A DNA stretch of 32,000 nucleotides, from positions 1,140,001 to 1,172,000 of the forward strand of contig NC_003272.1 in the NCBI RefSeq assembly GCF_000009705.1, read 5' to 3'. The stretch's first letter is position 1, and each line of letters starts with the position of its first letter. The notes under the pieces are model-generated. The model was not told where the DNA came from and did no database searches. It saw only the letters and a list, made by a program, of their open reading frames with translations. This document shows, piece after piece, positions 7,365 through 31,389 of the stretch. This stretch comes from Nostoc sp. PCC 7120 = FACHB-418. Its GTDB lineage: Bacteria > Cyanobacteriota > Cyanobacteriia > Cyanobacteriales > Nostocaceae. The translations under genes were made by a program, and so were the position numbers.

Positions 7365-8838
<1,474 letters not shown>

Positions 8839-8973
8839 GATGTAGTTTACCACCTTGTTTATGACTGGGGGCAATGGGGTTAACAATTTATGAGGATGTG
8901 AAATGATTAGGGTGTGTGGGTGGCAATGTCGGTATTAAACTTTGCATAGAACTCTTCACTAATGTCATACGAA

Positions 8974-14075: not shown

Positions 14076-15275
14076 TTAGCTGAACAATCGCTGCCATGTA
14101 AGTTTTTTTGTATGACTATCCCAATGCCAGCGCAATAAATTGGCAGGTTGACCCGGTTTCATTCCTGGCAAACCAATTGCCTTCCTTGGGGCATCAGTAG
14201 CAAGTACCAGTGCAGTTTCCACATCGCAAATTTCCCAATTCACCAAGTTTTCCACCCCTACTAATAAAGGTAAGGTTGTGCCTGATAATGTGCCATCTGG
14301 TAGCCGTGCAGTACCCCCTTGAACTTCTATTTGCCGACTATCCCAAGGATACACACCATCGGGTAGCCCTAAGGGAGCGAGGGCATCACTAACGAGAAAT
14401 ATTCCTTGAGTGGCACGGAGTAGGATTTGCAACATGATAGGCGAAACGTGCTGACCGTCGGCAATAAAACCACACATGACATGAGGATTAGTCATAGCTG
14501 CCCCCAAGAGTCCAGGTTCGCGGTGATGTAAGGGAGGCATGGCATTGAAGGCATGAGTTACCATTGTTGCACCCAACGCAAAAGCATTTTGGGCTTGGTT
14601 AGCCGTTGCCTGAGAATGTCCTAAACTAACCGTGATTCCTAAAGAACGTAAATATGGGATGACTTCTCCCGTAGGATCTAACTCTGGCGCTAAGGTGATG
14701 ACTTTAACAATATGGGCGTAATCTCCCAAAACCCGTTGGACTTCTTCTATTGTCAGAGGTAATAAATACTCGGCTGGGTGAGCGCCCCGCTTTTGATAGT
14801 TTAAGAAGGGGCCTTCTAGATGTACGCCTAAAATCTGGGAACCAGGTTGTGTGGTAGAGATAAAATCAGCAATAACAGCAAGCGATCGCTGGATATTTTC
14901 CACTGAAGTTGTCACCAGTGTAGGTAAAAATCCATCTACTCCCACATCCCATAAAAATTGGCAAATTTTCCCCAAAAAGTGGGCATTCTCAGCCGCCAAA
15001 TCAGGAAAAGCCAAGCCCAAAGCACCGTTAATTTGCAAATCAACGCCACCCAAAGAAATCCAATCTCCAGCCACATCTATTATTTGTAAGTCTGGTGACG
15101 CAACTCTGTTAAATCCAGTCCCCATCGGCAATATTTGTTCAATTATGCCCCCCTGATTCACCACAAGCATCTGTAAATCTTGGTAGCCAGGGACTTTAGC
15201 ATTAATAATATCTGTAGGCTTGTGTATGGTAGTCGGTAATTGGTAATCGGTAATTGTTAATTGGTAATTGCTCAT
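14076..15275 (-). CDS. nagA: N-acetylglucosamine-6-phosphate deacetylase
   Basis: 399 aa with amidohydrolase motifs GGVDLQINGALG, HLEGPFL, LGHSQA and THAFNAM. Confidence 0.88.
   Translation of the reverse strand: MSNYQLTITDYQLPTTIHKPTDIINAKVPGYQDLQMLVVNQGGIIEQILPMGTGFNRVASPDLQIIDVAGDWISLGGVDLQINGALGLAFPDLAAENAHFLGKICQFLWDVGVDGFLPTLVTTSVENIQRSLAVIADFISTTQPGSQILGVHLEGPFLNYQKRGAHPAEYLLPLTIEEVQRVLGDYAHIVKVITLAPELDPTGEVIPYLRSLGITVSLGHSQATANQAQNAFALGATMVTHAFNAMPPLHHREPGLLGAAMTNPHVMCGFIADGQHVSPIMLQILLRATQGIFLVSDALAPLGLPDGVYPWDSRQIEVQGGTARLPDGTLSGTTLPLLVGVENLVNWEICDVETALVLATDAPRKAIGLPGMKPGQPANLLRWHWDSHTKKLTWQRLFS
15234..15268. repeat. STRR-type heptamer array (cggtaat/tggtaat/tgttaat x5) inside the 5' end of nagA
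   Basis: The 7-bp periodicity is visible. On the minus strand it encodes NYQLTITDYQLPTT of the NagA N-terminus. Confidence 0.8.
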
Positions 15276-15387: not shown

Positions 15388-15915
15388 ATGGCTCCCTTGG
15401 TTGGCATTATTATGGGCAGCGATTCAGATTTGCCCACAATGAAAGAGGCGATCGCTATTTGTGAGGAATTTGGTGTAGAAAATGAAGTGGCGATCGTTTC
15501 AGCCCATCGCACCCCAGAACGGATGGTGGAATATGCCCAAACAGCCCATCATCGGGGTATTAAGGTGATTATTGCTGGTGCTGGTGGTGCCGCCCATCTT
15601 CCCGGCATGGTAGCATCTTTAACTCCTCTACCAGTGATTGGTGTGCCAGTCGCTACACGAAACTTACAAGGTGTGGATTCTTTATATTCAATTGTACAAA
15701 TGCCTGGGGGTATTCCTGTGGCTACGGTGGCGATCGGTAACGCCAAAAATGCTGGACTATTAGCTGTGCAAATCCTCGCTACTCAACAGCCAGAATTATT
15801 AACTAAAGTCCAAGCATACCGTCAAAACCTATCTGAATCAGTAATAACAAAGCAAGCAAAGTTAGAACAACTAGGTTACAAGCAGTATTTGGAACAGGAA
15901 ATATCTGGAAAATAG
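15388..15915 (+). CDS. purE: N5-carboxyaminoimidazole ribonucleotide mutase
   Basis: 175 aa. [21 protein letters not shown] and [12 protein letters not shown] are the PurE class I signature. Confidence 0.95.
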
Positions 15916-16506: not shown

Positions 16507-18003
16507 ATGGCTATAAACACAGGAAAAAATAAGCTGATGAATAGGCATATTCGACCCTGGCAACGCCTATTGGTGTTAGCGATTGGCTCAATGGTATTTG
16601 CTGTTTTTGCACCGACAATTGTGCAAGCGGTAGATACTCCTACCCTAGAATCTTTATCAGAAACTACCATCAAACTGCAAATTTCCATTGATACTACTTG
16701 GGTATTACTTTCTGGGTTTTTAGTATTTTTCATGCAAACCGGCTTCGCCATGTTAGAAGCTGGTTTAGTTCGCCAAAGAAGTGTAGTTAACACCCTACTA
16801 GAAAATTTCATTGACGCTGCTGTCACGGTTTTGGCATGGTGGGCGGTGGGTTTTGGTATCGCATTTGGTACAAGTGCAGGTGGTTTGTTTGGTATAGATA
16901 CATTCTTTCTCAGCCAGTTACCGGGTGCTGATGGTAGCTACCCATTAGGCGCACCAGGTTCTACAGCTGCTATTAACACCTATACTTTGTTCTTTTTCCA
17001 GTTTGCCTTTGCTGCTACTGCCAGTACCATTACTACTGGTTCAATGGCTGGCAGAACCGACTTTATAGGTGACTTAATTTATAGTGCGATCATGGGTGCT
17101 ATTAGCTACCCAATTATCGTGCATTGGGCTTGGAACTCCAATGGTTGGTTAGGCAAACTCAGTTACCATGATTTCGCAGGTGGTTCAATTGTTCATACCG
17201 TAGGTGGCTGGACAGCATTAGTTGGGGCATATTTGCTTGGGCCTCGTCCCGACCGTCCTCCTTGGGGAAAACTACCACCAGCCCATAACTTAGCCTTGGC
17301 AACTTTGGGAACGATGATTCTCTGGTTTGGCTGGTATGGGTTTAACCCTGGTTCAACCCTTGGTACTGCTAATCCGGGGTTGATTGGGTTAGTAACTATC
17401 AACACCACATTAGCAGCAGGTGCTGGCGCACTAGCAGCATTAATCTTTCTGTATGTTCGTACAGGTAAGTGGGATTTAGTTTATTGTCTCAATGGTTCTC
17501 TAGCTGGTTTAGTCGCAATTACAGCACCTTGTGCTTATGTGGCTCCTTGGGCTTCTGTACTAATTGGTTTAACGGGGGGGATTGCGGTTGTATTAGGAGT
17601 GAGTTTAATTGAGTCACTCCACATCGACGACCCAGTGGGAGCATTTTCAGTCCACGGTATCAGTGGCATGATGGGTACTCTCTCCATAGGCTTTTTAGGA
17701 CAAGAGGAACTCACTCTCAATCAAAAAGCAGGACTATTGCTAGGTGGTGGGTTTGATCTGCTGGGTATCCAAATGCTGGGGATAGTGGCGATTACGGTTT
17801 TCACAGTCGCTTTTGCCTTTCTGATGTATGGTGGCCTCAAAGCTATGGGACACTTACGTGTTAATGCTGAAGCAGATCGTATTGGTATTGATACTTATGA
17901 ACATGGTGCTTCAGTGTGGCCTGATGTTTACTCAGTTGAAGAGTTGAGCAAACCACAAGAACATACAAAAATTTCTGAAAATAAAACTTTAGAGGGGGAA
18001 TAA
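16507..18003 (+). CDS. amt4: Ammonium transporter (Amt family), first of three tandem paralogues
   Basis: 498 aa with an N-terminal signal-like segment and Amt motifs (FFMQTGFAMLEAG, DFAGGSIVHTVGGW, WFGWYGFNPGS, DDPVGAFSVHG). The symbol is assigned by order, by analogy with the Anabaena PCC 7120 amt4-amt1-amtB cluster. Confidence 0.88.
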   Translation: MAINTGKNKLMNRHIRPWQRLLVLAIGSMVFAVFAPTIVQAVDTPTLESLSETTIKLQISIDTTWVLLSGFLVFFMQTGFAMLEAGLVRQRSVVNTLLENFIDAAVTVLAWWAVGFGIAFGTSAGGLFGIDTFFLSQLPGADGSYPLGAPGSTAAINTYTLFFFQFAFAATASTITTGSMAGRTDFIGDLIYSAIMGAISYPIIVHWAWNSNGWLGKLSYHDFAGGSIVHTVGGWTALVGAYLLGPRPDRPPWGKLPPAHNLALATLGTMILWFGWYGFNPGSTLGTANPGLIGLVTINTTLAAGAGALAALIFLYVRTGKWDLVYCLNGSLAGLVAITAPCAYVAPWASVLIGLTGGIAVVLGVSLIESLHIDDPVGAFSVHGISGMMGTLSIGFLGQEELTLNQKAGLLLGGGFDLLGIQMLGIVAITVFTVAFAFLMYGGLKAMGHLRVNAEADRIGIDTYEHGASVWPDVYSVEELSKPQEHTKISENKTLEGE

Positions 18004-18284
18004 AATGGCAAATCTGTTCAATATTTTATCTGACCAATCTTTACAGAAGTTTTTTGGAGAAGATATTGACAATGTGAGGCGATCGCTCCTCTAAATCGTC
18101 AAATTTTGTTCATTAAAGACTCAATGAAGGAGACATGAATAATTGGAAAAACAATCTATAATAAATTTTTCAGAATTCCTGAAAATAATATTTACAAAAG
18201 TGCCATCAATTTTCTAAACTCCTACTTAGGTCAATTAAATTTCCCATTTGTAAATTTGTGATGTCAATAAAGAATAGCAAATAA

Positions 18285-18388
18285 CCACTTAATTTCACCT
18301 AAGTAGTCTTTCTTTGTAAACTCCTCACACAAGAACTGATGAGAAAGAGTCTAGAAACTAGGAACTCAGTACTCATTACTTTCTTTTG
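18285..18388 (+). ncRNA. Candidate Yfr1-like small RNA (or Yfr1-like element in the amt1 leader)
   Basis: There is an exact copy of the cyanobacterial Yfr1 undecanucleotide ACTCCTCACAC at 18320-18330. A long imperfect hairpin follows at 18337-18378 (outer stem tgatgag/ctcatta, inner stem gagtctag/ctag-ga-actc), then a CTTTCTTTT tract at 18379-18387. A weak 5' hairpin (actta/taagt) lies at 18287-18304. The ends are not determined. Confidence 0.45.
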
Positions 18389-18425
18389 CTGTTAAAGATA
18401 GTTGGAAGGTTAGCAATTCGGACTC

Positions 18426-19982
18426 ATGTACCAACAGAAATCAAGAACAAGAAATAGGCGCTTTTCTACCAGAAATTACGCTAAAAGTAGACAATCTAAC
18501 TCGCAAATCCAGATATTCAATCTAGTCAAAAAACTCTCTCCCAGTTGGCAAGCTTGTATACCTCTGGCTTGTTTGATTGTTTTGGGTTGGAGTTATGTGG
18601 CAGTTGCTCAAGCCCCAGCCGCAGGGCCGACAACAGCAGAACTAAAAGTTGCGCTTGACACCCTATGGGTAGCGATCGCCGCTTTCTTAGTATTCTTTAT
18701 GAATGCTGGTTTTGGTATGTTAGAAACCGGCTTCTGTCGTCAGAAAAATGCTGTTAACGTTCTTGCCAAAAACTTAATCGTGTTCGCCCTGGCAACCGTT
18801 GCCTTTTGGGCAATTGGTTTTGGGTTAATGTTCGGTGATGGCAATGATTTCATTGGCTTCAATGGGTTGTTTCTCTCAGGAGTAGATAACAGCCCGGCAA
18901 CAGGTGATGCTTATAAAGGTGTCTTCAGCGCTTTAAGTTGGGCTGGCGTACCTTTAGCCGCAAAATTTTTATTCCAGTTGGTGTTTGCTGGTACTGCGGC
19001 AACAATTGTCTCTGGTGCAGTTGCCGAAAGAATCAAGTTTGTTGACTTCTTGATTTTCAGCCTTTTACTTGTAGGTATCGCCTACCCGATTACCGGACAC
19101 TGGATTTGGGGCGCTGGTTGGTTAGCCAAGGCTGGTTTTTGGGACTTTGCTGGTTCTACAGTGGTTCACTCAGTTGGCGGTTGGGCAGCTTTGATGGGAG
19201 CTGCATTTCTGGGTCCTCGTATTGGTAAATATCAAGATAAGCAAATTGTGGCTTTACCTGGTCACAACATGAGTATTGCTACCTTGGGCTGCTTGATTCT
19301 GTGGTTAGGTTGGTTTGGTTTCAACCCTGGTTCTGTCATGGCTGCTGACCCCAATGCTATTACTCACATTGCTTTAACAACTAACATGGCTGGTGCCGTT
19401 GGTGGTATTGCTGCTACTGCTACCGCTTGGCTGTACTTAGGTAAACCAGACCTGTCAATGATTATTAATGGCATTTTGGCTGGTTTAGTTGGTATTACCG
19501 CATCTTGCGCTTATGTGAGCATTCCTAGTTCTATTATTATCGGTTTGATTGCCGGAGTCATAGTAGTTTTCTCTGTGACCTTCTTCGACAAACTAGGTAT
19601 TGATGACCCAGTAGGAGCAACTTCAGTTCACCTTGTTTGTGGTGTTTGGGGTACTCTTGCGGTTGGTTTATGGTCGGTTGGCCCTGGTGTTTACTCTTGG
19701 TATGGTGAGGGACTTGGCCCAACCAAGGGTTTATTTGCAGGTGGCGGTTTAGGACAGCTGATTACTCAATTCTTAGGTGCTGCCGCAGTAGGTGGTATGA
19801 CTGTACTCGTCAGTAGCATTTTCTGGGTAGTACTGAAAGCTACTTTGGGTATTAGAGTCACCAGAGAAGAAGAATTGGAAGGCTTGGATATCGGCGAACA
19901 CGGTATGGAAGCCTACAGTGGATTCCTGAAAGAAGCTAGTCCTGGTGGATTTGCAGAAGGCAAGACATCTGACGGCTATTAA
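18426..19982 (+). CDS. amt1: Ammonium transporter (Amt family), second paralogue
   Basis: 518 aa with Amt motifs ([49 protein letters not shown]). It has an unusually basic ~40-aa N-terminal extension before the first TM. Confidence 0.9.
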
Positions 19983-20030
19983 AGGGGTTGATTACAAAAC
20001 TACCTAATCAATCCTCTATTTAGAATTTAT

Positions 20031-20063
20031 AACCCCGATTTCTCCAAGAAATCGGGGTTTTTT
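20031..20063 (+). terminator. Rho-independent terminator after amt1
   Basis: A perfect 11-bp stem aaccccgattt / aaatcggggtt with a 7-nt loop, followed by tttt. Confidence 0.8.
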
Positions 20064-20324
20064 AATTTAGCTTCCTATATAGCTGTTGCCAGTAGTGTTA
20101 GGACATCAATAGATGATACAACCTAGACATAACAAGACTTTTCACCTAGTACCCAGTTCCTAGTCCCTAGCTGTAAGTACGGAAGGGTTTAATTGATGAG
20201 TAAATCATTGAAAAATACAGAGTAATTGATTAACGGCATCTCCAGAAAGAATTATTTTTTGATTAAAATTTGCGGAAAGATAAATCAGAGTAGCTTGCAA
20301 GACAAAAATCTTTGGCTAAAAGTA

Positions 20325-20360
20325 ATGAAATGTAACTAAGTATACAAGGTTACATTTCAT
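20325..20360. promoter_or_regulatory. 36-bp palindrome with two overlapping GTA-N8-TAC boxes just upstream of amtB
   Basis: Perfect 12-bp arms atgaaatgtaac (20325-20336) and gttacatttcat (20349-20360) flank a central gtatac. GTAN8TAC occurs at 20332-20345 and again at 20340-20353. The palindrome ends 20 nt before the amtB GTG. Confidence 0.5.
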
Positions 20361-20380
20361 CAGGGAGTGGGAACATAGAC

Positions 20381-21793
20381 GTGTTTCAGAAAATTTTGAT
20401 AATTGGGGTGAGTACCCTACTACTGCTGACAAGTCCCATCATGGGTAATGCTTGGGCGCAAGTCCCAGGGACGACTCCACCTGCTGATACGGGAGATACG
20501 GCATTTATGCTGATTTCAGCAGCCCTAGTCTTGCTGATGACACCAGGATTAGCATTTTTTTATGGTGGTTTCGTCCGATCGCGCAATATTCTCAATACAT
20601 TGATGATGAGCTTTGTATTGATGGCGATTGTGGGCGTTACCTGGGTTTTATGGGGTTATAGTCTGTCGTTTGCCCCAGGGCTGCCATTTATTGGTGGTTT
20701 ACAGTGGTTTGGGTTAAACGGTGTGGGGCTAGAAACCACAGGTTATCTGCAAGGTTCCGAGCCTGCGAATGTGGTTTCCTATGCCGGGACGATTCCCCAT
20801 CAGGCATACATGATATATCAAGCCATGTTTGCCATTATCACCCCAGCTTTAATTTCTGGTGCGATCGCCGAACGAATGAGTTTCCGTGCCTATTGCCTAT
20901 TTGTGCTACTGTGGTCAACCTTTATTTACACGCCTCTAGCCCACATGGTTTGGGCAAAAGGTGGATTCTTAGGTTTGTATGGCGGCTTAGGTGCGCTCGA
21001 CTTCGCCGGCGGTACAGTAGTTCATATTAGCTCTGGGGTTTCTGCCCTCGTCGCCGCAATAGTCCTGGGGCCAAGGAAAACCCATCCCGATCGCCTCAGC
21101 CCTCCCCACAACGTAACATTTATTTTGTTGGGTGCTGGCTTGCTATGGTTTGGCTGGTTCGGTTTTAACGCTGGGAGTGCCTTATCAGTTGCTAGCAGCA
21201 CTTCTGGCAGTTTCATCACTAATCCAGCTACAACTGCCTTTGTTGCCACCAACACCTCAGCCGCAGCCGGAGCTTTAATGTGGCTAATTCTAGAAGGAGT
21301 ATTACGCGGTAAACCCACCGCCGTAGGTGCAGCTACAGGCGCAGTTGCCGGTTTAGTAGGTATAACCCCAGCCGCCGGCTTTGTCACCCCTCTAGCGTCA
21401 ATTTTGATAGGTTTTATCACAGCTTTTGTTTGCTTTTATGCCGTAAGTTTCAAACACAAGCTAAATGTTGATGATGCCTTAGATACCTACCCGGTGCATG
21501 GTGTTGGTGGAACAGTTGGCGCAATTCTCACAGCTTTCTTTGCCACCGCCGAAGTTAACTCAGGTGGTAAAAACGGCGTACTCAAGGGTAATTTTGGTGA
21601 ACTAGGTGTGGAACTAGCCGCCATTGTCATCGCCTATGTAATTGCAGCAGTTGGTACTTGGATAATCTTGAAGATTATTGATGCTACCGTTGGCTTACGG
21701 GTGAAAGAAGAAGCAGAATACCAAGGTTTGGATATCAGCGAACACGGAGAAGAAGCATATAACTCCGAGTTTAGCGATCGCATCGTACCGTAA
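20381..21793 (+). CDS. amtB: Ammonium transporter AmtB-type, third paralogue
   Basis: 470 aa with a GTG start and gggagtggg upstream. It has a signal peptide (MFQKILIIGVSTLLLLTSPIMGNAWA-Q) and AmtB-type motifs (LMTPGLAFFYGG, DFAGGTVVHISSG, WFGWFGFNAGS). Confidence 0.92.
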   Translation: MFQKILIIGVSTLLLLTSPIMGNAWAQVPGTTPPADTGDTAFMLISAALVLLMTPGLAFFYGGFVRSRNILNTLMMSFVLMAIVGVTWVLWGYSLSFAPGLPFIGGLQWFGLNGVGLETTGYLQGSEPANVVSYAGTIPHQAYMIYQAMFAIITPALISGAIAERMSFRAYCLFVLLWSTFIYTPLAHMVWAKGGFLGLYGGLGALDFAGGTVVHISSGVSALVAAIVLGPRKTHPDRLSPPHNVTFILLGAGLLWFGWFGFNAGSALSVASSTSGSFITNPATTAFVATNTSAAAGALMWLILEGVLRGKPTAVGAATGAVAGLVGITPAAGFVTPLASILIGFITAFVCFYAVSFKHKLNVDDALDTYPVHGVGGTVGAILTAFFATAEVNSGGKNGVLKGNFGELGVELAAIVIAYVIAAVGTWIILKIIDATVGLRVKEEAEYQGLDISEHGEEAYNSEFSDRIVP

Positions 21794-21999: not shown

Positions 22000-24900
22000 T
22001 TACCTTGTCCGTAATAACTGCACAAAGGTATTACTCACCGTATTGTCTTTAGTATCTGCGGCGTATTGAATCAACTTCTCCCGCAATTCCTTGGCTGCAT
22101 CTATTGGAAGTAGGCTAGCTAACAGGAAGTAAACACCACGAAAGCGGGGGTCGCCCATTCTATCTACTAGTAGTGTTTCCGCTTCATCGCTATTGCCGAG
22201 GAAGTTCTGCACTAGGAAAAAGTCCATGATTTTATCGTGGCGGAAATACCATTCTTTCTTGGCTTCCCCTTTATCATCTTGCCATTGACGGCTGACTACC
22301 ATCTTATATTTCTCATCTTCCAAAGACATAACGACTTGATAAAATTCATCGGCGGGTAAGGCTTGTTTGTCGTCGATACGCATTTGGTAGACGGCGGCGG
22401 AGAATTTTTTTAAAGGAAATTCTTGCTTCCATTCCTTCAGGTATTCAGCCGCTATTAAATTGTATTGCTGTTCTTGCAGGCGGAATAAGTTGGGATGTTG
22501 ACCTTGGGATAACATCAGGGCTACCACGGTTAAATCCATTGGGTTGGAGAGAATACGCCTGGCTGCTTTTAATTCTTCCTCTGGTTGCTGAGTTGTGAGG
22601 ACTTCTTTTAAATAATTAATACAGGCTTGTTCGTAATCAGCACCCTGAATTTTGGCATCCTTGGGCAGTCGTGGTTCACGGGAGAGCAAGAACTCTTGAA
22701 TTTGGTTTGGTTCTAGGGGTTGTAGGTAGTAGGTTTTGGCCGTTGAGGGTGGTGTCCATTCTAGGGGCTGGGTAGTCATGATAATGTTGCCCCGGAAATA
22801 GCTTTCCACAAACTGGCAGATTTTGGCTCTGGTGTCGGCGGTGACTTCGTTGAGTCCGTCGATGCAGATATCTATTGCACCACTGTAAATCAGGTTTTTC
22901 AGGAAGTCGGCATCTTGGGCTTGGCCGTGTAGCTTGTCTTGGATGGCTTCAATTACGCCTTTATGGCATTTTTGGGCGGGGAGATAAACGACGATGCGCG
23001 GGGAGTTGTGCAACAGATGGCGGAGAAACATCGATTTACCTAAGCCGGAATCCCCTTCTAAGATGATTTGCCCCTTGATGCTGGGGAGGGCGGCGGTAAC
23101 TGGGGAGATTTCGCCTGTACCGGGAACTTTGACTCTGGATTCTGGGAAGTAGCCTTTGTCATTAAAGTTATCTAAGCCGGCATCGGCTAGGAGGGAGGGT
23201 TTGAAGGGTTCAAATAATTTACGGCGGAAGGGGGGAAACCAGGTGAGGAGAAAGCCGACGTAACCCACGCCTAAGATGCGGCGTACCCAAGGGTTCCAGA
23301 AGAAGATGGCTTGGATTTGGGGAAATTTGGGGTAAGCGAAGATGAGGGCAAGCCAGAAAGTAGCGTGTGTGAGGATGGTGATTCTGGCGTTGAAAAACCA
23401 CTGCCAACCCTTGAGGTTGACTATGACTGATTGCAGTGAATCAGCTTCGCTGTATCCGGCTTTTTTCAGGTTGTGGTAGTGAGTTTCTAATAGGAGAATA
23501 TCTTGTGGTTGCCAAGGAGTTTTTCTGGCGACTAGAGCGATTTGTTTTGCTAAGTCTTCCCGTAATCGAGTTAACCCTTGGCTAGGTTCCCAGGCTTGGG
23601 CGAAAATTGTCAGAGTTTTCTTACCTTCATTGTGGCTTAATGAAGCAGGAATTGTTTTAGTGTCGGGAAAACCCAGCCATGTTAGCAGCGTTTTCACTTC
23701 TTCAGTGCCGCCACCCAGAAAATAGGTTAAAAATCTCCACTGTGCAAATTCTGATTGACCAGCGTAATAAATGCTATCGAGAATTACAACGATATTATTC
23801 AGGTTGAGTTGTTCTATCTTGCCCAATCCCTCTGCTGCAACGTAACGAACATAACTGTCAACGGATTTATCCTTGAGGAAGTCGAGGATGTCTTTGAGGT
23901 AGGGTTTGGCAGCCTCCCCCAGATTTGCCAATGCCTCTGCTGCACCAGAACGAGCATTAGTGTCAACGGATTTATCCTTGAGGAAGTCGAGGATGTCTTT
24001 GAGGTAGGGTTTGGCAGCCTCCCCCAGATTTGCCAATGCCTCTGCTGCACCAGAACGAACACTACTGTCAACGGATTTATCTTTGAGGATATCAGCGATG
24101 TCTTTGACGTAGGGTTTGGCAGCCTCCCCCAGATTTCCCAATGCCTCTGCTGCATCTCTACGAACATAACTGTCAACAGATTTATCTTTGAGGATATCAG
24201 CGATGTCTTTGACGTAGGGTTTGGCAGCCTCCTCCAGATTTCCCAATGCCACTGCTGCACCGGAACGAACACTACTGTCAACGGATTTATCTTTGAGGAT
24301 ATCAGCGATGTCTTTGACGTAGGGTTTGGCAGCCTCCTCCAGATTTCCCAATGCCACTGCTGCATCTCTACGAACATAACTGTCAACGGATTTATCCTTG
24401 AGGAAGTCGAGGATGTCTTTGAGGTAGGGTTTGGCAGCCTCCCCCAGATTTCCCAATGCCACTGCTGCACCAGAACGAACACTACTGTCAACGGATTTAT
24501 CTTTGAGGATATCAGCGATGTCTTTGACGTAGGGTTTGGCAGCCTCTTCCAGATTTCCCAATGCCACTGCTGCATCTCTACGAACATAACTGTCAACGGA
24601 TTTATCCTTGAGGAAGTCGAGGATGTCTTTGAGGTAGGGTTTGGCAGCCTCCCCCAGATTTCCCAATGCCACTGCTGCACCTCTACGAACATTACTGTCA
24701 ACGGATTTATCCTTGAGGAAGTCGAGGATGTCTTTGAGGTAGGGTTTGGCAGCCTCCCCCAGATTTGCCAATGCCACTGCTGCACCAGAACGAACACTAC
24801 TGTCAACGGATTTATCTTTGAGGAAGTCGAGGATGTCTTTGAGGTAGGGTTTGGCAGCCTCCTCCAGATTTCCCAATGCCACTGCTGCATCGGAACGAAC

Positions 24901-25209
24901 ACTACTGTCAACGGATTTATCCTTGAGGATTTGGGCAGTTTTCTTAGCGATATCTTCCGGCTTCTGACCAACAGATTTTAACTTTTGCAGGTCATACTCA
25001 ACTAATTTACTCAGTGCATATCTCTTAACTTCGTTATATCCATCATCAAGGGCAGCTACTATGCCATTAATCTGCCACGCTGTCGGCTGGGGTTTGGGCT
25101 GTTCCTTTGCACTCACCCAAGGTAGGCAGAGTAGGAAAGAAAGGATGAAGGCTAAAGAATAAAGAATGTAGCGAGAAGGCTGGCGATGATGGCGGAGAGT
25201 TGTGACCAT
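22000..25209 (-). CDS. Membrane-anchored STAND NTPase: N-terminal signal/anchor, 11 HEAT (PBS-lyase-type) repeats, hydrophobic segments, NACHT-type P-loop NTPase
   Basis: 1069 aa. The N-terminus is MVTTLRHHRQPSRYILYSLAFILSFLLCLPWVSA-KEQ. Eleven 35-aa units of the form AAKPY(L/V)KDI(L/A)D(F/I)LKDKSVDSxVRxxAAxALxNLxE follow. Hydrophobic segments are ITILTHATFWLALIFAY and ILGVGYVGFLLTWF. Walker A is GDSGLGKS, Walker B is AIDICIDGLNEV, followed by IIMTTQP and YYLQPLEPNQIQEFL, the typical NACHT order. Confidence 0.85.
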   Translation of the reverse strand: MVTTLRHHRQPSRYILYSLAFILSFLLCLPWVSAKEQPKPQPTAWQINGIVAALDDGYNEVKRYALSKLVEYDLQKLKSVGQKPEDIAKKTAQILKDKSVDSSVRSDAAVALGNLEEAAKPYLKDILDFLKDKSVDSSVRSGAAVALANLGEAAKPYLKDILDFLKDKSVDSNVRRGAAVALGNLGEAAKPYLKDILDFLKDKSVDSYVRRDAAVALGNLEEAAKPYVKDIADILKDKSVDSSVRSGAAVALGNLGEAAKPYLKDILDFLKDKSVDSYVRRDAAVALGNLEEAAKPYVKDIADILKDKSVDSSVRSGAAVALGNLEEAAKPYVKDIADILKDKSVDSYVRRDAAEALGNLGEAAKPYVKDIADILKDKSVDSSVRSGAAEALANLGEAAKPYLKDILDFLKDKSVDTNARSGAAEALANLGEAAKPYLKDILDFLKDKSVDSYVRYVAAEGLGKIEQLNLNNIVVILDSIYYAGQSEFAQWRFLTYFLGGGTEEVKTLLTWLGFPDTKTIPASLSHNEGKKTLTIFAQAWEPSQGLTRLREDLAKQIALVARKTPWQPQDILLLETHYHNLKKAGYSEADSLQSVIVNLKGWQWFFNARITILTHATFWLALIFAYPKFPQIQAIFFWNPWVRRILGVGYVGFLLTWFPPFRRKLFEPFKPSLLADAGLDNFNDKGYFPESRVKVPGTGEISPVTAALPSIKGQIILEGDSGLGKSMFLRHLLHNSPRIVVYLPAQKCHKGVIEAIQDKLHGQAQDADFLKNLIYSGAIDICIDGLNEVTADTRAKICQFVESYFRGNIIMTTQPLEWTPPSTAKTYYLQPLEPNQIQEFLLSREPRLPKDAKIQGADYEQACINYLKEVLTTQQPEEELKAARRILSNPMDLTVVALMLSQGQHPNLFRLQEQQYNLIAAEYLKEWKQEFPLKKFSAAVYQMRIDDKQALPADEFYQVVMSLEDEKYKMVVSRQWQDDKGEAKKEWYFRHDKIMDFFLVQNFLGNSDEAETLLVDRMGDPRFRGVYFLLASLLPIDAAKELREKLIQYAADTKDNTVSNTFVQLLRTR
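23815..24940. repeat. About 10.7 tandem copies of a near-identical 105-bp unit (coding, the HEAT array)
   Basis: The string ccttgaggaagtcgaggatgtctttgaggtagggtttggcagcctc recurs with a 105-bp period. Units differ only at a few clustered positions. Confidence 0.92.
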
Positions 25210-25510: not shown

Positions 25511-25783
25511 ACTCTCCCGCCAGTATTAAAGACTCACTCACGAGTATCAAATACTCTCCCGCCAGTATTAAAGACTCACTCACGAGTATTAAAGACTCTC
25601 CCGCCAGTATTAAAGACTCTCCCGCCAGTATTAAAGGCTCTCCCGCCAGTATTAAAGACTCGCTCACGAGTATTAAAGACTCTCCCGCCAGTATTAAAGA
25701 CTCTCTCGCCAGTATCAAAGACTCGCTCACGAGTATCAAAGACTCATTAACGAGACGTAAATACTCGCTCACGAGTATTAAAT
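25511..25783. repeat. 13-copy tandem array of a 21-bp unit in two variants
   Basis: Variant A is actctcccgccagtattaaag and variant B is actc(a/g)ctcacgagtat(t/c)aaag. The order is A B A B A A A B A A B B B, with a degenerate 14th unit to 25804. B units carry an internal inverted repeat (actcg-ctca-cgagt). Confidence 0.92.
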
Positions 25784-25952: not shown

Positions 25953-26429
25953 TTATGAACCAGTAGCCGCTTTTGCAGGCTTATTTTTAATCGCCTTGAA
26001 CCGTTCCCCTAACTGTTCCGCCAGAGTTTTTAACCCCGGTGTTTTCTTTGCAGCCGTCTTGACGTAATCATATACAGTCAAACTGCTGCCCATTGCTTCG
26101 CTACCAACTGCCAATAGGGTATCATCTACCTGTTCTGTCAGTTGTCGCAGCCCAATTAACAGTTCGGTGAGGGTGGTGGCTAGTTGATAATCCCGCACAA
26201 ATTCCTCTACATCAAAACTGGCTGGTAGAATGTCTGGGTTAGACTGGGCAGCAGTCAGGCTAGTGTTGACAAAAGCTAGGCTTTTATCGCCCATCTTAAA
26301 TAACTTGCGTCGTTCTTCCACACTCAAGGTAACGAGAAACGGCAACTTTCCCTGAATGGTGGCAAATGCAGCTTTAATTTCTTTGACATCTTCAGCAGAA
26401 AGGGAAGCGGTGATATTTTGGTAAGCCAT
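25953..26429 (-). CDS. Conserved hypothetical protein, predicted all-helical
   Basis: A 158-aa ORF with clean codon structure. The LSVEERRKLFKMGDKSLAFV motif looks familiar from uncharacterised bacterial proteins, but I cannot name a family. Confidence 0.6.
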   Translation of the reverse strand: MAYQNITASLSAEDVKEIKAAFATIQGKLPFLVTLSVEERRKLFKMGDKSLAFVNTSLTAAQSNPDILPASFDVEEFVRDYQLATTLTELLIGLRQLTEQVDDTLLAVGSEAMGSSLTVYDYVKTAAKKTPGLKTLAEQLGERFKAIKNKPAKAATGS

Positions 26430-26971: not shown

Positions 26972-28438
26972 ATGCCCACAAATCAGACTGATCAAAATCC
27001 CCTTTCAATTGACAGGCAAAATTCCGCTTATATCTCCTCATCAGATATTTTTAATACAGACAATAATTATACTTCTCAGCTAGGTTTTCGTAGTAGCTAC
27101 ACTTCAGATATAAATAATCATGCTACTGCTACCAGCACTTACAACTCAACTAATGGTTATGGTTTAGTCAATGCAGGCGCAGCCGTACCTCAAGCTGCTG
27201 GACAAAATCCTTATAGTGATGTTGCTAACCTTGGCGGGAATAATTGGGGCTTAGATATGATTAATGCTCCAGAAGTATGGGCAAATGGACATACAGGCCA
27301 AGGCATAATTGTGGCGGTGATAGATACGGGCGTAGACACTAACCATGAGGATTTACGTAATAATATCTGGACTAATAGCAAAGAAATTGCTGGTAATGGC
27401 ATAGATGACGATGGTAATGGCTATGTCGATGATGTCCACGGCTGGAATTTTAACGACAACAATAACAACACCCTTGATAATAATGGTCATGGAACCCATG
27501 TTTCCGGGATTATTGCTGGGGGGAATAATGGCTTTGGTGTGACTGGTGTTGCTTACAATTCCCAGATTATGGCTGTGAAGGTGCTGGATGAATCTGGTTC
27601 TGGTTCTTATAGTGCGATCGCCAACGGAATTTACTATGCTGTAGATAATGGGGCAAAAGTCATCAACCTCAGTCTGGGTGGTGATTCGTCCAGTCGTACA
27701 CTCAAGTCTGCAATTGAATATGCTAGCAGTAAAGGGGCGATCGTGGTCATGGCCGCAGGTAATGATGGTGAATCTGCGCCAGACTACCCCGCTCGTTACG
27801 CCAATCAAACAGGAATCGCTGTTGGTGCGGTAGATGCTAATAAAAATTTAACTGATTTCTCCAACCGTTCTGGCAATACGACTATGGCTTATGTCACCGC
27901 CCCAGGACAAAGCGTTTATTCTTCAGTACCAAATAATCAGTATGCCAATTATAGTGGTACATCAATGGCAACTCCTTACGTTGCTGGTGTAGTCGCCCTC
28001 ATGCTCAGTGCTAACCCCAATTTAACTGAAGCCCAGGTGCGAGATATTATTACCAGCACCGCAGGAAACACCAGCAACGACACTACACCCAAAACAGACT
28101 CTGATTTTAACTTTGACTTTGGTTCTGTTGTAGATGACTTATTTGGTGGTTTAAGTCTAAATACCACATCAATTAGTGCTTCTAGTCTCAACTCCCAATC
28201 TTTGCAAAAGAGCAATATTTTCACCACAAGTTCAAATACTGCATCTGTATTATCTAATAATCAAACATCCACCGCTTACCAAATGGAGTTTACCCACAAA
28301 TATTATCAAGACTCTCTACCCAACAGCCTAGCCAACAGCCCAACAGATATTGACACTGGTAATAATATTGATTTTACAGAGTTCATGAATATCATCGTTA
28401 CACGACTGAGAGAGTACCAAAAATTGTTGGGTGCATAA
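26972..28438 (+). CDS. Subtilisin-like serine peptidase (S8 family)
   Basis: 488 aa with a gaggag SD. The catalytic triad contexts are VAVIDTGVD, HGTHVSG and GTSMATPYVAG, and there is a DDDGNGYVDD calcium-loop-like insert. It has a long N/S/T-rich C-terminal tail and no obvious signal peptide. Confidence 0.9.
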   Translation: MPTNQTDQNPLSIDRQNSAYISSSDIFNTDNNYTSQLGFRSSYTSDINNHATATSTYNSTNGYGLVNAGAAVPQAAGQNPYSDVANLGGNNWGLDMINAPEVWANGHTGQGIIVAVIDTGVDTNHEDLRNNIWTNSKEIAGNGIDDDGNGYVDDVHGWNFNDNNNNTLDNNGHGTHVSGIIAGGNNGFGVTGVAYNSQIMAVKVLDESGSGSYSAIANGIYYAVDNGAKVINLSLGGDSSSRTLKSAIEYASSKGAIVVMAAGNDGESAPDYPARYANQTGIAVGAVDANKNLTDFSNRSGNTTMAYVTAPGQSVYSSVPNNQYANYSGTSMATPYVAGVVALMLSANPNLTEAQVRDIITSTAGNTSNDTTPKTDSDFNFDFGSVVDDLFGGLSLNTTSISASSLNSQSLQKSNIFTTSSNTASVLSNNQTSTAYQMEFTHKYYQDSLPNSLANSPTDIDTGNNIDFTEFMNIIVTRLREYQKLLGA

Positions 28439-28911: not shown

Positions 28912-29391
28912 AGAACTTCGCCCTAATTTTCTAGAGTAAAATACTGACTTTAACTGCACAATTTGGACATGACTACAGAAGAATTATCTTCAGTAAGTAA
29001 TTTACGTCAGGTAGAAATATGGTCTAGTATGACATCCGTTCACTCCCATACAACTGTTTATAAGTTGAGTTTTTTGAGTCTCCCATTTTCATCAGATTTC
29101 TTTAGCAATTAGTCTACAAAAGTAAATAATGGTTAGTTTTTCTTGACGTTTGGCTTTTATTCATACTCTCATGGGGCAATGCTTCCTGCTATCCGTCTTT
29201 TACCTCCTGACAACGGCGGTAAGTTTTCCCATCCACCTATTTATATCTTTAGTTTTAGATTGGCTAAGATATGAAAATTGATTTCTCTGACTCGTGGCTG
29301 ATGTAAATCATTGTTCTAGTTAGTTTCTTAGAAGAAATAAGCCACATACTTGATTTATGTGTCTGATTTCTGTCACTAATTGGGCTACAAA

Positions 29392-30306
29392 ATGTTTTAT
29401 CACGCTAAGAAATTGCAATATTTCAGACCACCCGAAAAACCAGATGCAGTCTACGCGAATAAAATCCAAGAACTCATCGGTGGGACTTTTGGAGAAATGA
29501 CCGTAATGATGCAGTATCTGTTTCAAGGATGGAACTGTCGCGGGTCTGCCAAGTATCGAGATTTGCTTCTAGATACAGGTACTGAAGAAATTGGTCATAT
29601 TGAGATGTTGGCAACAATGATTGCCCATCTTTTAGATAAAGCACCCATCAAAGTGCAGGAAGAAGGTGTAAGAGATGCAGTAGTGGGTGCTGTTATGGGT
29701 GGGACTAACCCACGGGATGTCATTATGAACGCAGCTATGAATCCCCAGCACTCTATTGTTTCTGGTTTAGGTGCGTTGCCAGCTGATAGTGTAGGTTTTC
29801 CTTGGAATGGTCGCTTTATTGTTTCTAGTGGTAATTTACTAGCAGATTTTCGCTCAAATCTTCATGCTGAGAGTCAGGGACGCTTACAAGCAGTGCGATT
29901 ATATGAAATGAGCAACGACCCAGGGGTGAAAGATACCCTCAGTTTTATGATTGCTCGTGATACCATGCACCAAAACCAGTGGTTAGCAGCAATTGAAGAT
30001 TTAGAGCAATCTGGACTAGAAAGTACTCCTGTTCCCAGTTCCTTCCCCCTAGAATTAGAAAAGCGTGAATTTGCTTATCAGTTCTGGAATCACTCAGAAG
30101 GAACAGAAAGCGCCGAGGGTCGCTGGGCAAAAGGCCCCTCAATGGATGGTAAAGGCGAATTTGAGTATGTTGCTAACCCCCAACCCTTGGGGCCAGAACC
30201 ACAACCACCACAACCCGACCCACAACTACACGGTACACAACAAATTCCCCATCCTCAACAAGGTAACGGCTCTAGCGCACCTTCTTTAGTTGAGCGTATT
30301 TGCTAA
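29392..30306 (+). CDS. Manganese catalase (ferritin-like di-Mn catalase)
   Basis: MFYHAKKLQYFRPPEKPDAVYANKIQELIGGTFGEMTVMMQYLFQGWN and EEIGHIEML are Mn-catalase signatures. The track start at 29380 is a TTG; ATG 29392 fits the family N-terminus. The C-terminal ~70 aa are P/Q-rich. Confidence 0.9.
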   Translation: MFYHAKKLQYFRPPEKPDAVYANKIQELIGGTFGEMTVMMQYLFQGWNCRGSAKYRDLLLDTGTEEIGHIEMLATMIAHLLDKAPIKVQEEGVRDAVVGAVMGGTNPRDVIMNAAMNPQHSIVSGLGALPADSVGFPWNGRFIVSSGNLLADFRSNLHAESQGRLQAVRLYEMSNDPGVKDTLSFMIARDTMHQNQWLAAIEDLEQSGLESTPVPSSFPLELEKREFAYQFWNHSEGTESAEGRWAKGPSMDGKGEFEYVANPQPLGPEPQPPQPDPQLHGTQQIPHPQQGNGSSAPSLVERIC

Positions 30307-30361: not shown

Positions 30362-31389
30362 ACGTGATGTGCGACTTATTGTTTCGTTACACAATTGAGG
30401 TGTATGAACGATTGAAAAGAAAATTCCCACAATCCGCACTGGAGCGAGAAAATCGTTACCAGTGAATGGAATGCGGGAAAAATGTTTTCTATTGAAGAGT
30501 TTATCATTGCCGTATTTTGCTGTGTTGACGACGTGCTGATGGAAATCACCCAGATATACCCAATCAAGAGACGAGGTTTTGCTCCGAGTTTAAGGGAGAG
30601 TGAAGTTTTAACAATGGAATTAGTGGCAGAGTTTTTGGGAATAGATGCTGAAAAAGACATTTGGAAATACTTTCACCGTCACTGGTTAGGGCTATTTCCT
30701 CAGTTAAAGAGTCGCTATGCTTTTATTCGTCAAGCAGCTAATTGTTGGCAGTACAAGGAACTCATACAACAAAAATTAGCACAGTATTTAGGAGCATACT
30801 CTGATCAACTTCATTTGATTGATGGATTACCAATACCTTTGTGTGGCTTCAGTCGCGCTCCCAACTGCCGAAGTTTTAAATCCCTTGTAGATTATGGTTT
30901 TTGTGCTGCTAAAAAACAGACGTACTATGGGTTTCATGGGCATTTAATCGTTAGTGGCACAGGAGTTATTAGTGGGTTTACCCTGACTCCGGCAAATGGC
31001 AGTGAACGGGACGCACTTTGGGATTTAATCACGCGAATTAAAGGTTTATTAATCGGAGATAAGGGCTATTTAAGTCAGTTCTTGTCAGGAGAACTTAAAG
31101 AAGTGGGTATTACTTTACAAACCCCTTTGCGTTCTAATATGTCTGACTCTCGTAGCCGATCTTCAGTGCGATTAATGCAACGCTTTCGTCGCCTAATTGA
31201 AACAGTAATTGGTCAATTAGTTGAGAGATTTCATATAGAGAAGATTCGAGCGAGAGATATGTGGCATCTTACCAGTCGTCTCAATCGCAAGATTTTAGCT
31301 CATACCGTCTGTTTCTGGCTTAATCGCCACAATTGTGACCCTCTTCAGTTCGACGATCTTGTTACAGAATATTAAGTCGCACATGGCGT
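30362..31389 (+). mobile_element. IS982-like insertion sequence (~1.03 kb)
   Basis: Imperfect terminal inverted repeats are acgtgATGTGCGACTTA (30362-30378) and TAAGTCGCACATggcgt (31373-31389), with a 12-bp perfect core. They enclose a single DDE transposase ORF whose stop lies in the right IR. Confidence 0.75.
30482..31375 (+). CDS. DDE transposase, IS982-family-like
   Basis: 297 aa. The candidate catalytic contexts are LIDGLPIPLC, LIGDKGY and RRLIETVIGQL, in the order and spacing typical of IS982/IS4-like transposases. Confidence 0.85.
   Translation: MFSIEEFIIAVFCCVDDVLMEITQIYPIKRRGFAPSLRESEVLTMELVAEFLGIDAEKDIWKYFHRHWLGLFPQLKSRYAFIRQAANCWQYKELIQQKLAQYLGAYSDQLHLIDGLPIPLCGFSRAPNCRSFKSLVDYGFCAAKKQTYYGFHGHLIVSGTGVISGFTLTPANGSERDALWDLITRIKGLLIGDKGYLSQFLSGELKEVGITLQTPLRSNMSDSRSRSSVRLMQRFRRLIETVIGQLVERFHIEKIRARDMWHLTSRLNRKILAHTVCFWLNRHNCDPLQFDDLVTEY

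Follow-up and report, generated by a model that had tools for sequence, protein, structure and literature searches.

A 1069-residue protein of Nostoc sp. PCC 7120, encoded on the minus strand at positions 22000-25209 of a 32,000-nucleotide stretch (the window; contig NC_003272.1, positions 1,140,001 to 1,172,000), contains a divergent, complete NACHT module that is very probably connected through the membrane to an exported array of HEAT repeats. From the N to the C terminus, we read the chain as a Sec signal peptide, the HEAT array, a helical stalk, a membrane block, and the NACHT module. An initial annotation of the sequence had described this order and had proposed a receptor with its HEAT repeats outside the cell and its NTPase inside; the observation was confirmed and the interpretation supported by the analyses reported here. 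The open reading frame listing places the gene, from ATG to stop, at exactly these coordinates, and the choice of the start codon is backed by homologues with the same beginning. Conservation was assessed in two alignments, one of 64 sequences used for AlphaFold2 (AF2) modeling of residues 473-1069 (A1) and a 24-sequence profile of residues 672-1069 (A2). The parts of the gene, in window coordinates, are the following.

22000..25209, minus strand: whole gene, predicted 1069-residue transmembrane NACHT receptor (open reading frame list, stop codon included; full-length homologues share start and end)
25108..25209, minus strand: predicted signal peptide, residues 1-34, with a basic n-region, a 17-residue h-region, c-region WVSA, and predicted cleavage between A34 and K35 (hydropathy peak of 2.09; conserved junction; N-termini of the family)
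24928..25107, minus strand: mature N terminus, residues 35-94, with Pro/Lys-rich linker KEQPKPQP, motif W-Q-I-x-G-x-x-A-A-L-D-D, and solenoid N-terminal cap
23794..24927, minus strand: HEAT array, residues 95-472, predicted periplasmic sensor (Pfam, tandem repeat, unit alignment)
23395..23793, minus strand: juxtamembrane helical stalk, residues 473-605, three helical hairpins running into the transmembrane (TM) helix (AF2; present in most representatives)
23329..23394, minus strand: TM helix 1, residues about 606-627, the membrane-embedded stretch of a 40-residue helix that runs unbroken from 589 to 628 (hydropathy, AF2 secondary structure, column conservation)
23179..23328, minus strand: invariant-length membrane/juxtamembrane block, residues 628-677 (column conservation, AF2)
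22714..23178, minus strand: NACHT nucleotide-binding domain (NBD), residues 678-832 (AF2 beta-alpha-beta core, Foldseek, HHalign, NLRC4 profile alignment)
23032..23055, minus strand: Walker A GDSGLGKS, residues 719-726 (S721, G722, G724, and K725 invariant in A2)
22846..22872, minus strand: Walker B DICIDGLNE, residues 780-788 (D784, G785, and N787 invariant, E788 at least 90%; aligns to lldgldev)
22765..22785, minus strand: sensor-1 strand IIMTTQP, residues 809-815 (invariant Gln814, Q143 of A2; TTQ aligns to tcr)
22507..22713, minus strand: helical domain 1 (HD1), residues about 833-901, including SNPMDL at 888-893 (AF2 helices; SNPMDLTVVA aligns to tnpllltllc; N889 and P890 invariant; boundaries inferred)
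22210..22506, minus strand: winged-helix domain (WHD), residues about 902-1000, with beta-hairpin wing 971-989 and FRHDKIMDFF at 989-998 (AF2; boundaries inferred)
22003..22209, minus strand: helical domain 2 (HD2), residues about 1001-1069 (RFRGVYFLLA ... LLRTR), the end of the protein (RFRGVYFLLA aligns to rwrevfllav)

Identity of the NTPase module

The initial annotation had called the NTPase a clear NACHT core. Its motifs are indeed present, but the core is not clear to Pfam, since PF05729 scored below its gathering threshold (E = 0.03; 14.5-17.1 bits versus a cut-off of 26.7) and over only about 20 residues around Walker A. The assignment was established by fold and profile-profile comparisons, and the low PF05729 score reflects divergence rather than absence; weak Pfam NACHT matches were obtained for 21 of the 24 members of A2, the best with an E value of 1.2e-5. 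Matches to AAA_22 and AAA_16 were likewise below the Pfam threshold, and for the NTPase, single-sequence searches of Pfam, NCBIfam, and PADLOC with the full protein and with its non-repeat half returned generic sub-threshold P-loop matches only. Neither phmmer nor profile hmmsearch against PDB sequences gave anything significant for the NTPase half; only the NBD of NLRC4 (residues 154-285; E = 0.03) aligned over the whole stretch between Walker A and sensor 1. Matches to Rossmann-type glucose dehydrogenases in the PDB sequence search (E = 0.016) were spurious, and matches to alphaRep and PP2A dominated the results of a first profile built with the HEAT columns.

The AF2 model of residues 473-1069 had a predicted local distance difference test (pLDDT) score of 93.9 and a predicted TM-score (pTM) of 0.81. 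Foldseek comparison of this model with the PDB returned NLRC4, NLRP3-NACHT, NOD2, and NAIP as all of the top seven matches, with E values from 4e-8 to 2e-6 over about 450 aligned columns (NLRC4 4kxf, 4e-8; NLRP3 NACHT 8wsm, 2.6e-7, with a TM-score of 0.53 normalized to the target). ORC/Cdc6, Avs4, and RFC ranked after the NLRs (E of at least 7e-5). HHalign comparison of A2 with a genuine Pfam NACHT+NCH2 protein from Microseira (L002:18007-20274) gave a probability of 96.4% and an E value of 1.1e-9 over 292 columns; the alignment was in register at Walker A, Walker B (IDGLNEV/ldgldev), sensor 1, SNPMDL/tnplll, the WHD histidine motif, and RFRGVYFLLA/rwrevfllav. The NTPase is a divergent, complete NACHT module composed of NBD, HD1, WHD, and HD2. 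The C-terminal 250 residues, in which the initial annotation had recognized no effector domain, correctly so, correspond to the HD1, WHD, and HD2 parts of this module.

The sequence motifs combine canonical and family-specific features. GDSGLGKS fits the Walker A pattern GxxxxGK[ST], with core residues invariant in the 24 diverse relatives. In Walker B, Asp784 and Glu788 are conserved, and the second Asp of the NACHT consensus DGLDE is invariantly Asn787, yielding the family-specific DGLNE. The sensor-1 arginine of the consensus (T-S/C-R) is absent, the aligned position being occupied by the invariant Gln814. The histidine motif of the WHD (F-x-H-x-x-h-x-E/D-F/Y-h) is found as FRHDKIMDFF, with His991 invariant together with R990 and K993 in A2, and WYFRHDKIMDFF aligns to ysfshltfheyf.

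The HEAT ectodomain and the membrane block

The N terminus displays the features of a Sec signal peptide, as anticipated from the basic stretch, hydrophobic segment, and VSA-KE site noted initially. The basic n-region (MVTTLRHHRQPSR) precedes an h-region that forms the strongest hydropathy peak of the protein (Kyte-Doolittle maximum of 2.09 in a 19-residue window, residues 15-33), and the c-region, WVSA before KE, satisfies the -3/-1 rule. Among homologues, the junction is kept as (V/T/N/R)A followed by KE. A crude feature test detected signal-peptide-like N-termini in at least 90 of 130 Met-start representatives, the exceptions being mostly truncated within the HEAT repeats or deviating only by the lack of a basic residue. 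The protein is probably exported by Sec with cleavage between A34 and K35. The W-Q-I-x-G-x-x-A-A-L-D-D motif recurs immediately after the signal peptide in distant representatives and in the A1 consensus.

The 11 HEAT-type repeats counted initially were recovered as ten perfectly in-phase 35-residue PBS-type units (residues 95-444) followed by a degenerate eleventh, anchored on a KPY motif. In the protein scan, both Pfam HEAT_2 (E = 8e-31; 106.6 bits versus a cut-off of 27.7) and HEAT_PBS (E = 1.5e-26; 90.3 bits versus 20.9) scored far above their gathering thresholds. At the DNA level, the array appears as a 105-nucleotide tandem repeat at 23822-24929 (10.6 copies, 91% matches, Tandem Repeats Finder score of 1711), which is far beyond chance. 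The units are 84-99% identical in DNA sequence and vary at about 11 of 35 positions; the 235:69 ratio of nonsynonymous to synonymous codon differences among them is near the neutral expectation, and we make no claim of positive selection. The best PDB sequence matches of the HEAT part, searched with a family profile, were designed alphaRep binders (E down to 3e-84).

Close homologues have anywhere between about 1 and 10 repeat units, and cytoplasmic modules sharing at least 73% identity are found with repeats of either the 35-residue or the 31-residue class. One ENA protein (P0001, 964 versus 1069 residues) is identical at all aligned residues and lacks residues 177-246 and 385-419, i.e., exactly two plus one HEAT units; this could be real copy-number variation or assembly collapse. 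From these comparisons, the family appears to combine a constant transducer with a plastic, swappable sensor array. Many public assemblies stop within or just upstream of the conserved module (L005, L009, L013, L015, L022, L029-L032, and others), which suggests that assemblers break in the near-identical tandem array, and many database entries of the family are labeled partial for that reason.

Downstream of the array, the conserved stalk was modeled with high confidence (pLDDT of 95.7, pTM of 0.89), and a comparison of its fold with the PDB gave no significant match (best E of 0.58). It runs into TM helix 1, in which H615 (91%), W619 (100%), Y626 (100%), and P627 (98%) are conserved and columns 611-627 of the 64-sequence alignment contain no charged residue. 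The block that follows contains two short hydrophobic segments, 629-642 (14 residues) and 645-661 (17 residues), bracketed by conserved basic residues (K628, R643/R644, R662-K664, and K670), and a helix, 659-677 in the AF2 model, connects it to the NTPase. Columns 611-683 are free of indels in the 64 sequences, which are 35-89% identical overall; W619, Y626, F637, G647, Y650, and P668 are invariant, and this block has more invariant residues than the ATPase core. Asp and Glu are absent between 611 and 666 in all 64 sequences, a Gly-rich GxGxxG stretch lies within the block, and each hydrophobic segment has a cluster of basic residues on the side facing the NACHT module.

The hydrophobic segments quoted in the initial annotation were located at 610-626, 632-642, and 645-658. 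That annotation had pointed out that two TM helices would give an inconsistent topology and that a borderline third helix mattered. In the central block, simple hydropathy places just two segments above threshold, and AF2 predicts short helices of 7-8 residues (630-637, 640-646, and 650-657) with breaks at N639-P640 and G647-x-G649. The block may contain a single genuine TM helix accompanied by re-entrant or interfacial elements, or else three short passes; we favor the former, given how short the segments are and that each has basic residues at both ends. Since one and three passes are both odd numbers, the two options lead to the same predicted topology, with the N terminus and HEAT array outside and the C terminus and NACHT module inside, which settles the difficulty in principle.

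Relatives provided additional evidence for this orientation. In place of the HEAT array, the same TM-NACHT module carries in some of them Peripla_BP_6/ANF_receptor (8e-37, in Candidatus Parabeggiatoa), GspD-like N0 domains (2e-23 and 4e-20, once together with PDZ), or STN (1.4e-17, with a weak FecR_C match). Peripla_BP_6, secretin N0/STN, and PDZ-type domains of this kind are periplasmic in bacteria, and their replacement of the HEAT array argues for the N-out/C-in topology. An extracytoplasmic location of the N-terminal region is supported by three independent lines read from sequence, namely, the signal peptides, the domain swaps, and the charge distribution. The outside would be the periplasm or, possibly, the thylakoid lumen.

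The family, its genomic context, and possible functions

A word-indexed search collected 647 related proteins; the 120 top-ranking ones each shared 72% identity or more over the 597-residue non-repeat half. An exhaustive HMMER scan of 1.84 billion cluster representatives gave 927 clusters at 50% identity with E values of at most 1e-3 and 506 with E values of at most 1e-30, most of the representatives covering the whole 597 residues. The taxa are mostly filamentous cyanobacteria and multicellular bacteria (Nostocales, Microseira, Trichocoleus, Moorena, Leptolyngbyaceae, Parabeggiatoa, and Haliangiales), and several Nostoc metagenome-assembled genomes (MAGs) hold two or more paralogues each. Viral contigs yielded a single match in 2.9 million (L083; IMG/VR IMGVR_UViG_2832142748_000002), 50% identical to the module, and a viral origin was discarded on this count. 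The family is mis- or under-annotated, under names such as HEAT repeat protein or PBS lyase, and is missed by the Pfam NACHT and defense-finder models.

Among the 141 representatives with a complete C terminus, 84 end within 12 residues of the stop of the Nostoc protein, which represents the common, majority form devoid of effector. Another 27 (about 19%) continue for at least 60 residues past HD2. These tails include TIR_2 (3.8e-15), EAD11 (1.6e-17 and 6.9e-10), EAD2 (8.3e-16, in a cluster that has a Haliangiales MAG), a near-threshold class III cyclase (Guanylate_cyc, 21.1 versus 21.9 bits), a second STAND-like NTPase (nSTAND1/AAA_16, sub-threshold), and two further types to which no family was assigned. 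As in Toll-like receptors, relative P0194 couples a solenoid ectodomain to a cytoplasmic TIR. In P0123, P0126, P0159, P0168, and P0204, about 550 residues with a second STAND-like P-loop NTPase (GLRKSGKTS) follow HD2, in tandem within one chain. TIR and effector-associated domains are signatures both of bNACHT proteins (Kibby et al., bioRxiv 10.1101/2022.07.19.500537) and of the NTP-dependent conflict systems found in multicellular bacteria (Kaur et al. 2020, PMC7159879). Because about 19% of the relatives carry C-terminal TIR, EAD2, EAD11, cyclase, or second STAND domains, we placed the family among NLR-type conflict systems, and we lean slightly toward a conflict or immune role for it.

We consider it likely that the protein acts as a single-chain, membrane-spanning receptor of the NLR type. 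A periplasmic ligand, most likely a protein, would bind the variable concave face of the HEAT solenoid, and the resulting change would reach the membrane block by way of the rigid stalk and TM helix. An ADP-locked, autoinhibited NACHT module would then be released, exchange its nucleotide, and oligomerize on the inner face of the membrane. In about one-fifth of the relatives, oligomerization would activate or cluster the C-terminal TIR, cyclase, EAD2/EAD11 adaptor, or second STAND NTPase. The form devoid of effector may instead recruit an unlinked partner to the oligomer or cluster the invariant membrane block; our confidence in any specific output is low.

Several observations weigh against this mechanism. 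The topology is deduced from sequence logic and domain swaps, and a defense output of the Nostoc protein would be extrapolated purely from its relatives. Across Nostocales, the cytoplasmic half shares 72-90% identity, and 150 representatives retain at least 35%, a level of conservation reminiscent of housekeeping proteins and unusual for an immune receptor. DGLNE and Gln814 deviate invariantly from the NACHT consensus, so that the nucleotide cycle may be atypical. No curated defense model (bNACHT, Avs, or EruA) matched over the NTPase; the PADLOC and NCBIfam defense models hit the HEAT repeats only (PADLOC HEAT_CxxC_PD-DEXK and RT_UG20; NCBIfam EruA, 21.7 bits versus a cut-off of 1000, on residues 369-476). 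The neighborhood, which the initial annotation had suggested examining, is neither defense-like nor conserved, and no conserved partner gene was found in 82 related loci. Separately encoded homologues of the tail domains were likewise not detected near the gene in the related loci.

The neighbors in the window, which comprise an amt cluster, a subtilase, a Mn-catalase, and a transposase, do not form a recognizable defense island. Three tandem ammonium-transporter genes (16507-21793, plus strand; Pfam Ammonium_transp E values from 1e-114 to 6e-124) are convergent with the gene. A link to ammonium transport was rejected, amt adjoining the homologue in none of the 82 loci, so that the adjacency is unique to this window. 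On the other side, orf158 (25953-26429, minus strand, 158 residues) lies upstream of the homologue on the same strand in 31 of the 82 loci with 84-94% identity; it is conserved only in the closest Nostoc clade, always lies at least 600 bp from the homologue, and had no match in Pfam (E of at most 1e-5), NCBIfam, or the PDB. A 21-nucleotide tandem repeat of about 13 copies (unit ACTCTCCCGCCAGTATTAAAG, 80-86% matches) occupies 25511-25782, about 300 bp upstream of the ATG; it yields a spurious 87-residue open reading frame of SESLILV repeats and may belong to the short tandemly repeated repetitive (STRR)-like sequences of cyanobacteria. Promoter and terminator scans around the gene remained at chance level. 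In Microseira wollei (L002, 10987-20274), the homologue stands beside an integrase, an SbcC/AAA_23-like ATPase, a PemK toxin, and a canonical NACHT+NCH2 protein, a context that is mobile or defense-like, unlike that of the window.

Elsewhere in the window, a thiamine pyrophosphate (TPP) riboswitch (8746-8842, minus strand; Rfam RF00059, 60 bits, E = 1.5e-9) lies directly upstream of a 462-residue open reading frame (7365-8753) and presumably controls a thiamine-biosynthesis gene. N-acetylglucosamine-6-phosphate deacetylase NagA (14076-15275, minus strand; TIGR00221, 254 bits, above cut-off) adjoins purE (15388-15915), and a DDE transposase (30482-31375, plus strand; DDE_Tnp_1_3, 9e-26) is located near the Mn-catalase (29380-30306) and the S8 subtilase (26972-28438).

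Four other explanations were considered. The HEAT array could monitor an endogenous envelope component, such as the status of peptidoglycan, septa, or exoproteins, with the NACHT module serving as a regulatory ATP switch that does not kill. The very high conservation of the 600-residue transducer and NACHT part, the near-ubiquity in Nostocales (genome scan), the lack of a defense island in this window, the absence of a fused effector in about 80% of the members, this protein included, and the near absence from viral contigs (1 in 2.9 million) are all in keeping with such a housekeeping or signaling sensor. We nonetheless find it rather doubtful, since relatives fuse to the module TIR, EAD2, EAD11, and second STAND NTPases, domains that characterize conflict systems (Kaur et al. 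2020, PMC7159879), the sensor arrays change copy number rapidly, the paralogues multiply within genomes, and the protein has no DNA-binding or other regulatory output domain.

Alternatively, the membrane block might itself be the effector, NACHT oligomers clustering its TM and re-entrant segments into a pore or lesion to cause cell death of the abortive-infection type. With such an activity, most members could do without a further effector domain, and the absence of both a fused effector and a linked partner would fit. Block 611-683 is also the most conserved part of the protein, with no indels, with invariant residues, and with far more conservation than an anchor requires. The block is, however, equally conserved in TIR-, EAD-, and cyclase-tailed members (A1 contains none of these, and the representative search aligns them end to end), which fits a transducer at least as well, and Pfam and Foldseek detected no similarity to known pore formers. 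We therefore regard a pore as unlikely.

Placing both modules in the cytoplasm, because the N-terminal stretch is not inserted or because a two-helix hairpin provides the anchor, would turn the protein into a membrane-tethered ordinary NLR. Only two central segments exceed the hydropathy threshold, and HEAT/PBS-lyase repeats are typically cytoplasmic. This arrangement is nevertheless very improbable: the N terminus bears all of the features of a Sec signal peptide, kept although its sequence varies; PBP (periplasmic binding protein), secretin N0/STN, and PDZ domains occupy the ectodomain position in relatives; conserved basic clusters flank each hydrophobic segment on one side; and a two-pass hairpin combined with an exported N terminus would place the ATPase in the periplasm. 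Finally, the phycobilisome lyase or degradation-type HEAT protein suggested by the name PBS lyase given to homologues in databases, and by the HEAT_PBS match, can be virtually discounted, as the combination of signal peptide, TM block, and NACHT module rules out a soluble lyase subunit and the CpcE/F identity was rejected as a generic repeat match (equivalog NF058502, 28.8 bits versus a cut-off of 330).

Comparison with known systems and significance

The membrane-spanning NLR-type receptor that we favor shares with bNACHT proteins and animal NLRs (NLRC4, NLRP3, and NOD2) the same NBD-HD1-WHD-HD2 module, by fold and by profile, and the fusion of a repeat-type sensor to the switch. Its relatives also carry TIR and EAD effectors and, as reported for bNACHT (Kibby et al., bioRxiv 10.1101/2022.07.19.500537), are enriched in cyanobacteria and other multicellular bacteria. 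In contrast to these proteins, the order is reversed, the sensor being N-terminal and the effector, if any, C-terminal, and the sensor is predicted to be exported, so that the membrane would part it from the switch. The NTPase further differs by DGLNE, by the sensor-1 Gln, by its sub-threshold Pfam NACHT score, and by the lack of a PADLOC or NCBIfam model that matches it. In the bacterial NACHT class with multiple TM regions (category 4, Supplementary Discussion, Kibby et al.; Kaur et al. 2020 and 2021), these regions are C-terminal to or inside the NACHT module, whereas the signal peptide, large folded ectodomain, and TM block precede it here.

KAP P-loop NTPases are likewise membrane-embedded, STAND-related bacterial NTPases, with TM helices inserted in the P-loop domain. 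Here, every hydrophobic segment (606-661) precedes strand beta-1 and Walker A (714-726), leaving no KAP-type insertion, and the fold matches NACHT rather than KAP. FecR-type regulators, Toll-like receptors, and plant receptor kinases follow a shared logic, with a swappable extracytoplasmic domain, one membrane crossing, and a cytoplasmic signaling module, and STN/FecR_C-like and PBP ectodomains do occur in the relatives. The signaling module is a STAND NTPase in this family, not an anti-sigma factor, a kinase, or a bare TIR, and homology is limited to the shared accessory domains. The HEAT array is of the same repeat type as alphaRep and PBS-lyase HEAT-like proteins, with variation concentrated at a subset of positions; natural PBS-type HEAT proteins are cytoplasmic, whereas this array has a signal peptide and 35-residue units.

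Predicted periplasmic sensors have been discussed in other conflict systems (Doré et al. 2024, PMC10907252). No published architecture with a signal peptide, a solenoid or PBP ectodomain, a TM segment, and NACHT was found in Kibby et al., Doré et al., Kaur et al. (2020 and 2021), a 2026 STAND survey, and part of the bNACHT census table, in agreement with the initial impression that the arrangement differs from characterized examples. That part of the table, which makes for a weak negative, has no bacterial HEAT domain N-terminal to NACHT, its sole HEAT_2+NACHT entry being a eukaryotic double-NACHT protein. The initial annotation had named the lack of a NACHT/STAND match, a cytoplasmic location of both modules, or membership in a characterized family as observations that would count against it; HHalign and Foldseek gave significant NACHT matches, the predicted topology separates the two modules, and no characterized family with this architecture was found in these sources. 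Judged from its sequence, the protein would be a switch of a known kind, the NLR/NACHT conflict type, in a new variant arrangement, with a reversed-order sensor across the membrane.

To our knowledge, the mechanistically understood NLR and STAND immune switches of animals, plants, fungi, and bacteria sense ligands in the compartment of the NTPase itself. A large natural family in which a complete NACHT module appears to be linked across the membrane with an interchangeable periplasmic sensor (HEAT, PBP, secretin N0/STN, or PDZ) makes it testable whether, and how, a STAND switch can be gated across a bilayer. We propose, tentatively, that these proteins are bacterial NLRs that survey the periplasm, rather than the cytoplasm, from the outside in, combining ligand capture by a fast-evolving solenoid outside the cytoplasm, in the manner of Toll-like receptors and receptor kinases, with nucleotide-gated oligomerization of the NLR type in one polypeptide. 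The periplasm is continuous along the filament in filamentous cyanobacteria, and such a receptor could survey the whole filament for incoming phage, competitor, or damage-derived proteins that have yet to enter the cytoplasm or never do. For STAND NTPases, the ultra-conserved membrane block would then represent a new means of converting signals across the membrane, or else an output that forms pores. If this proposal holds, bacterial innate-immune sensing would extend to the periplasm, and the family would provide a prokaryotic counterpart to receptors that pair a solenoid ectodomain with a cytoplasmic TIR.

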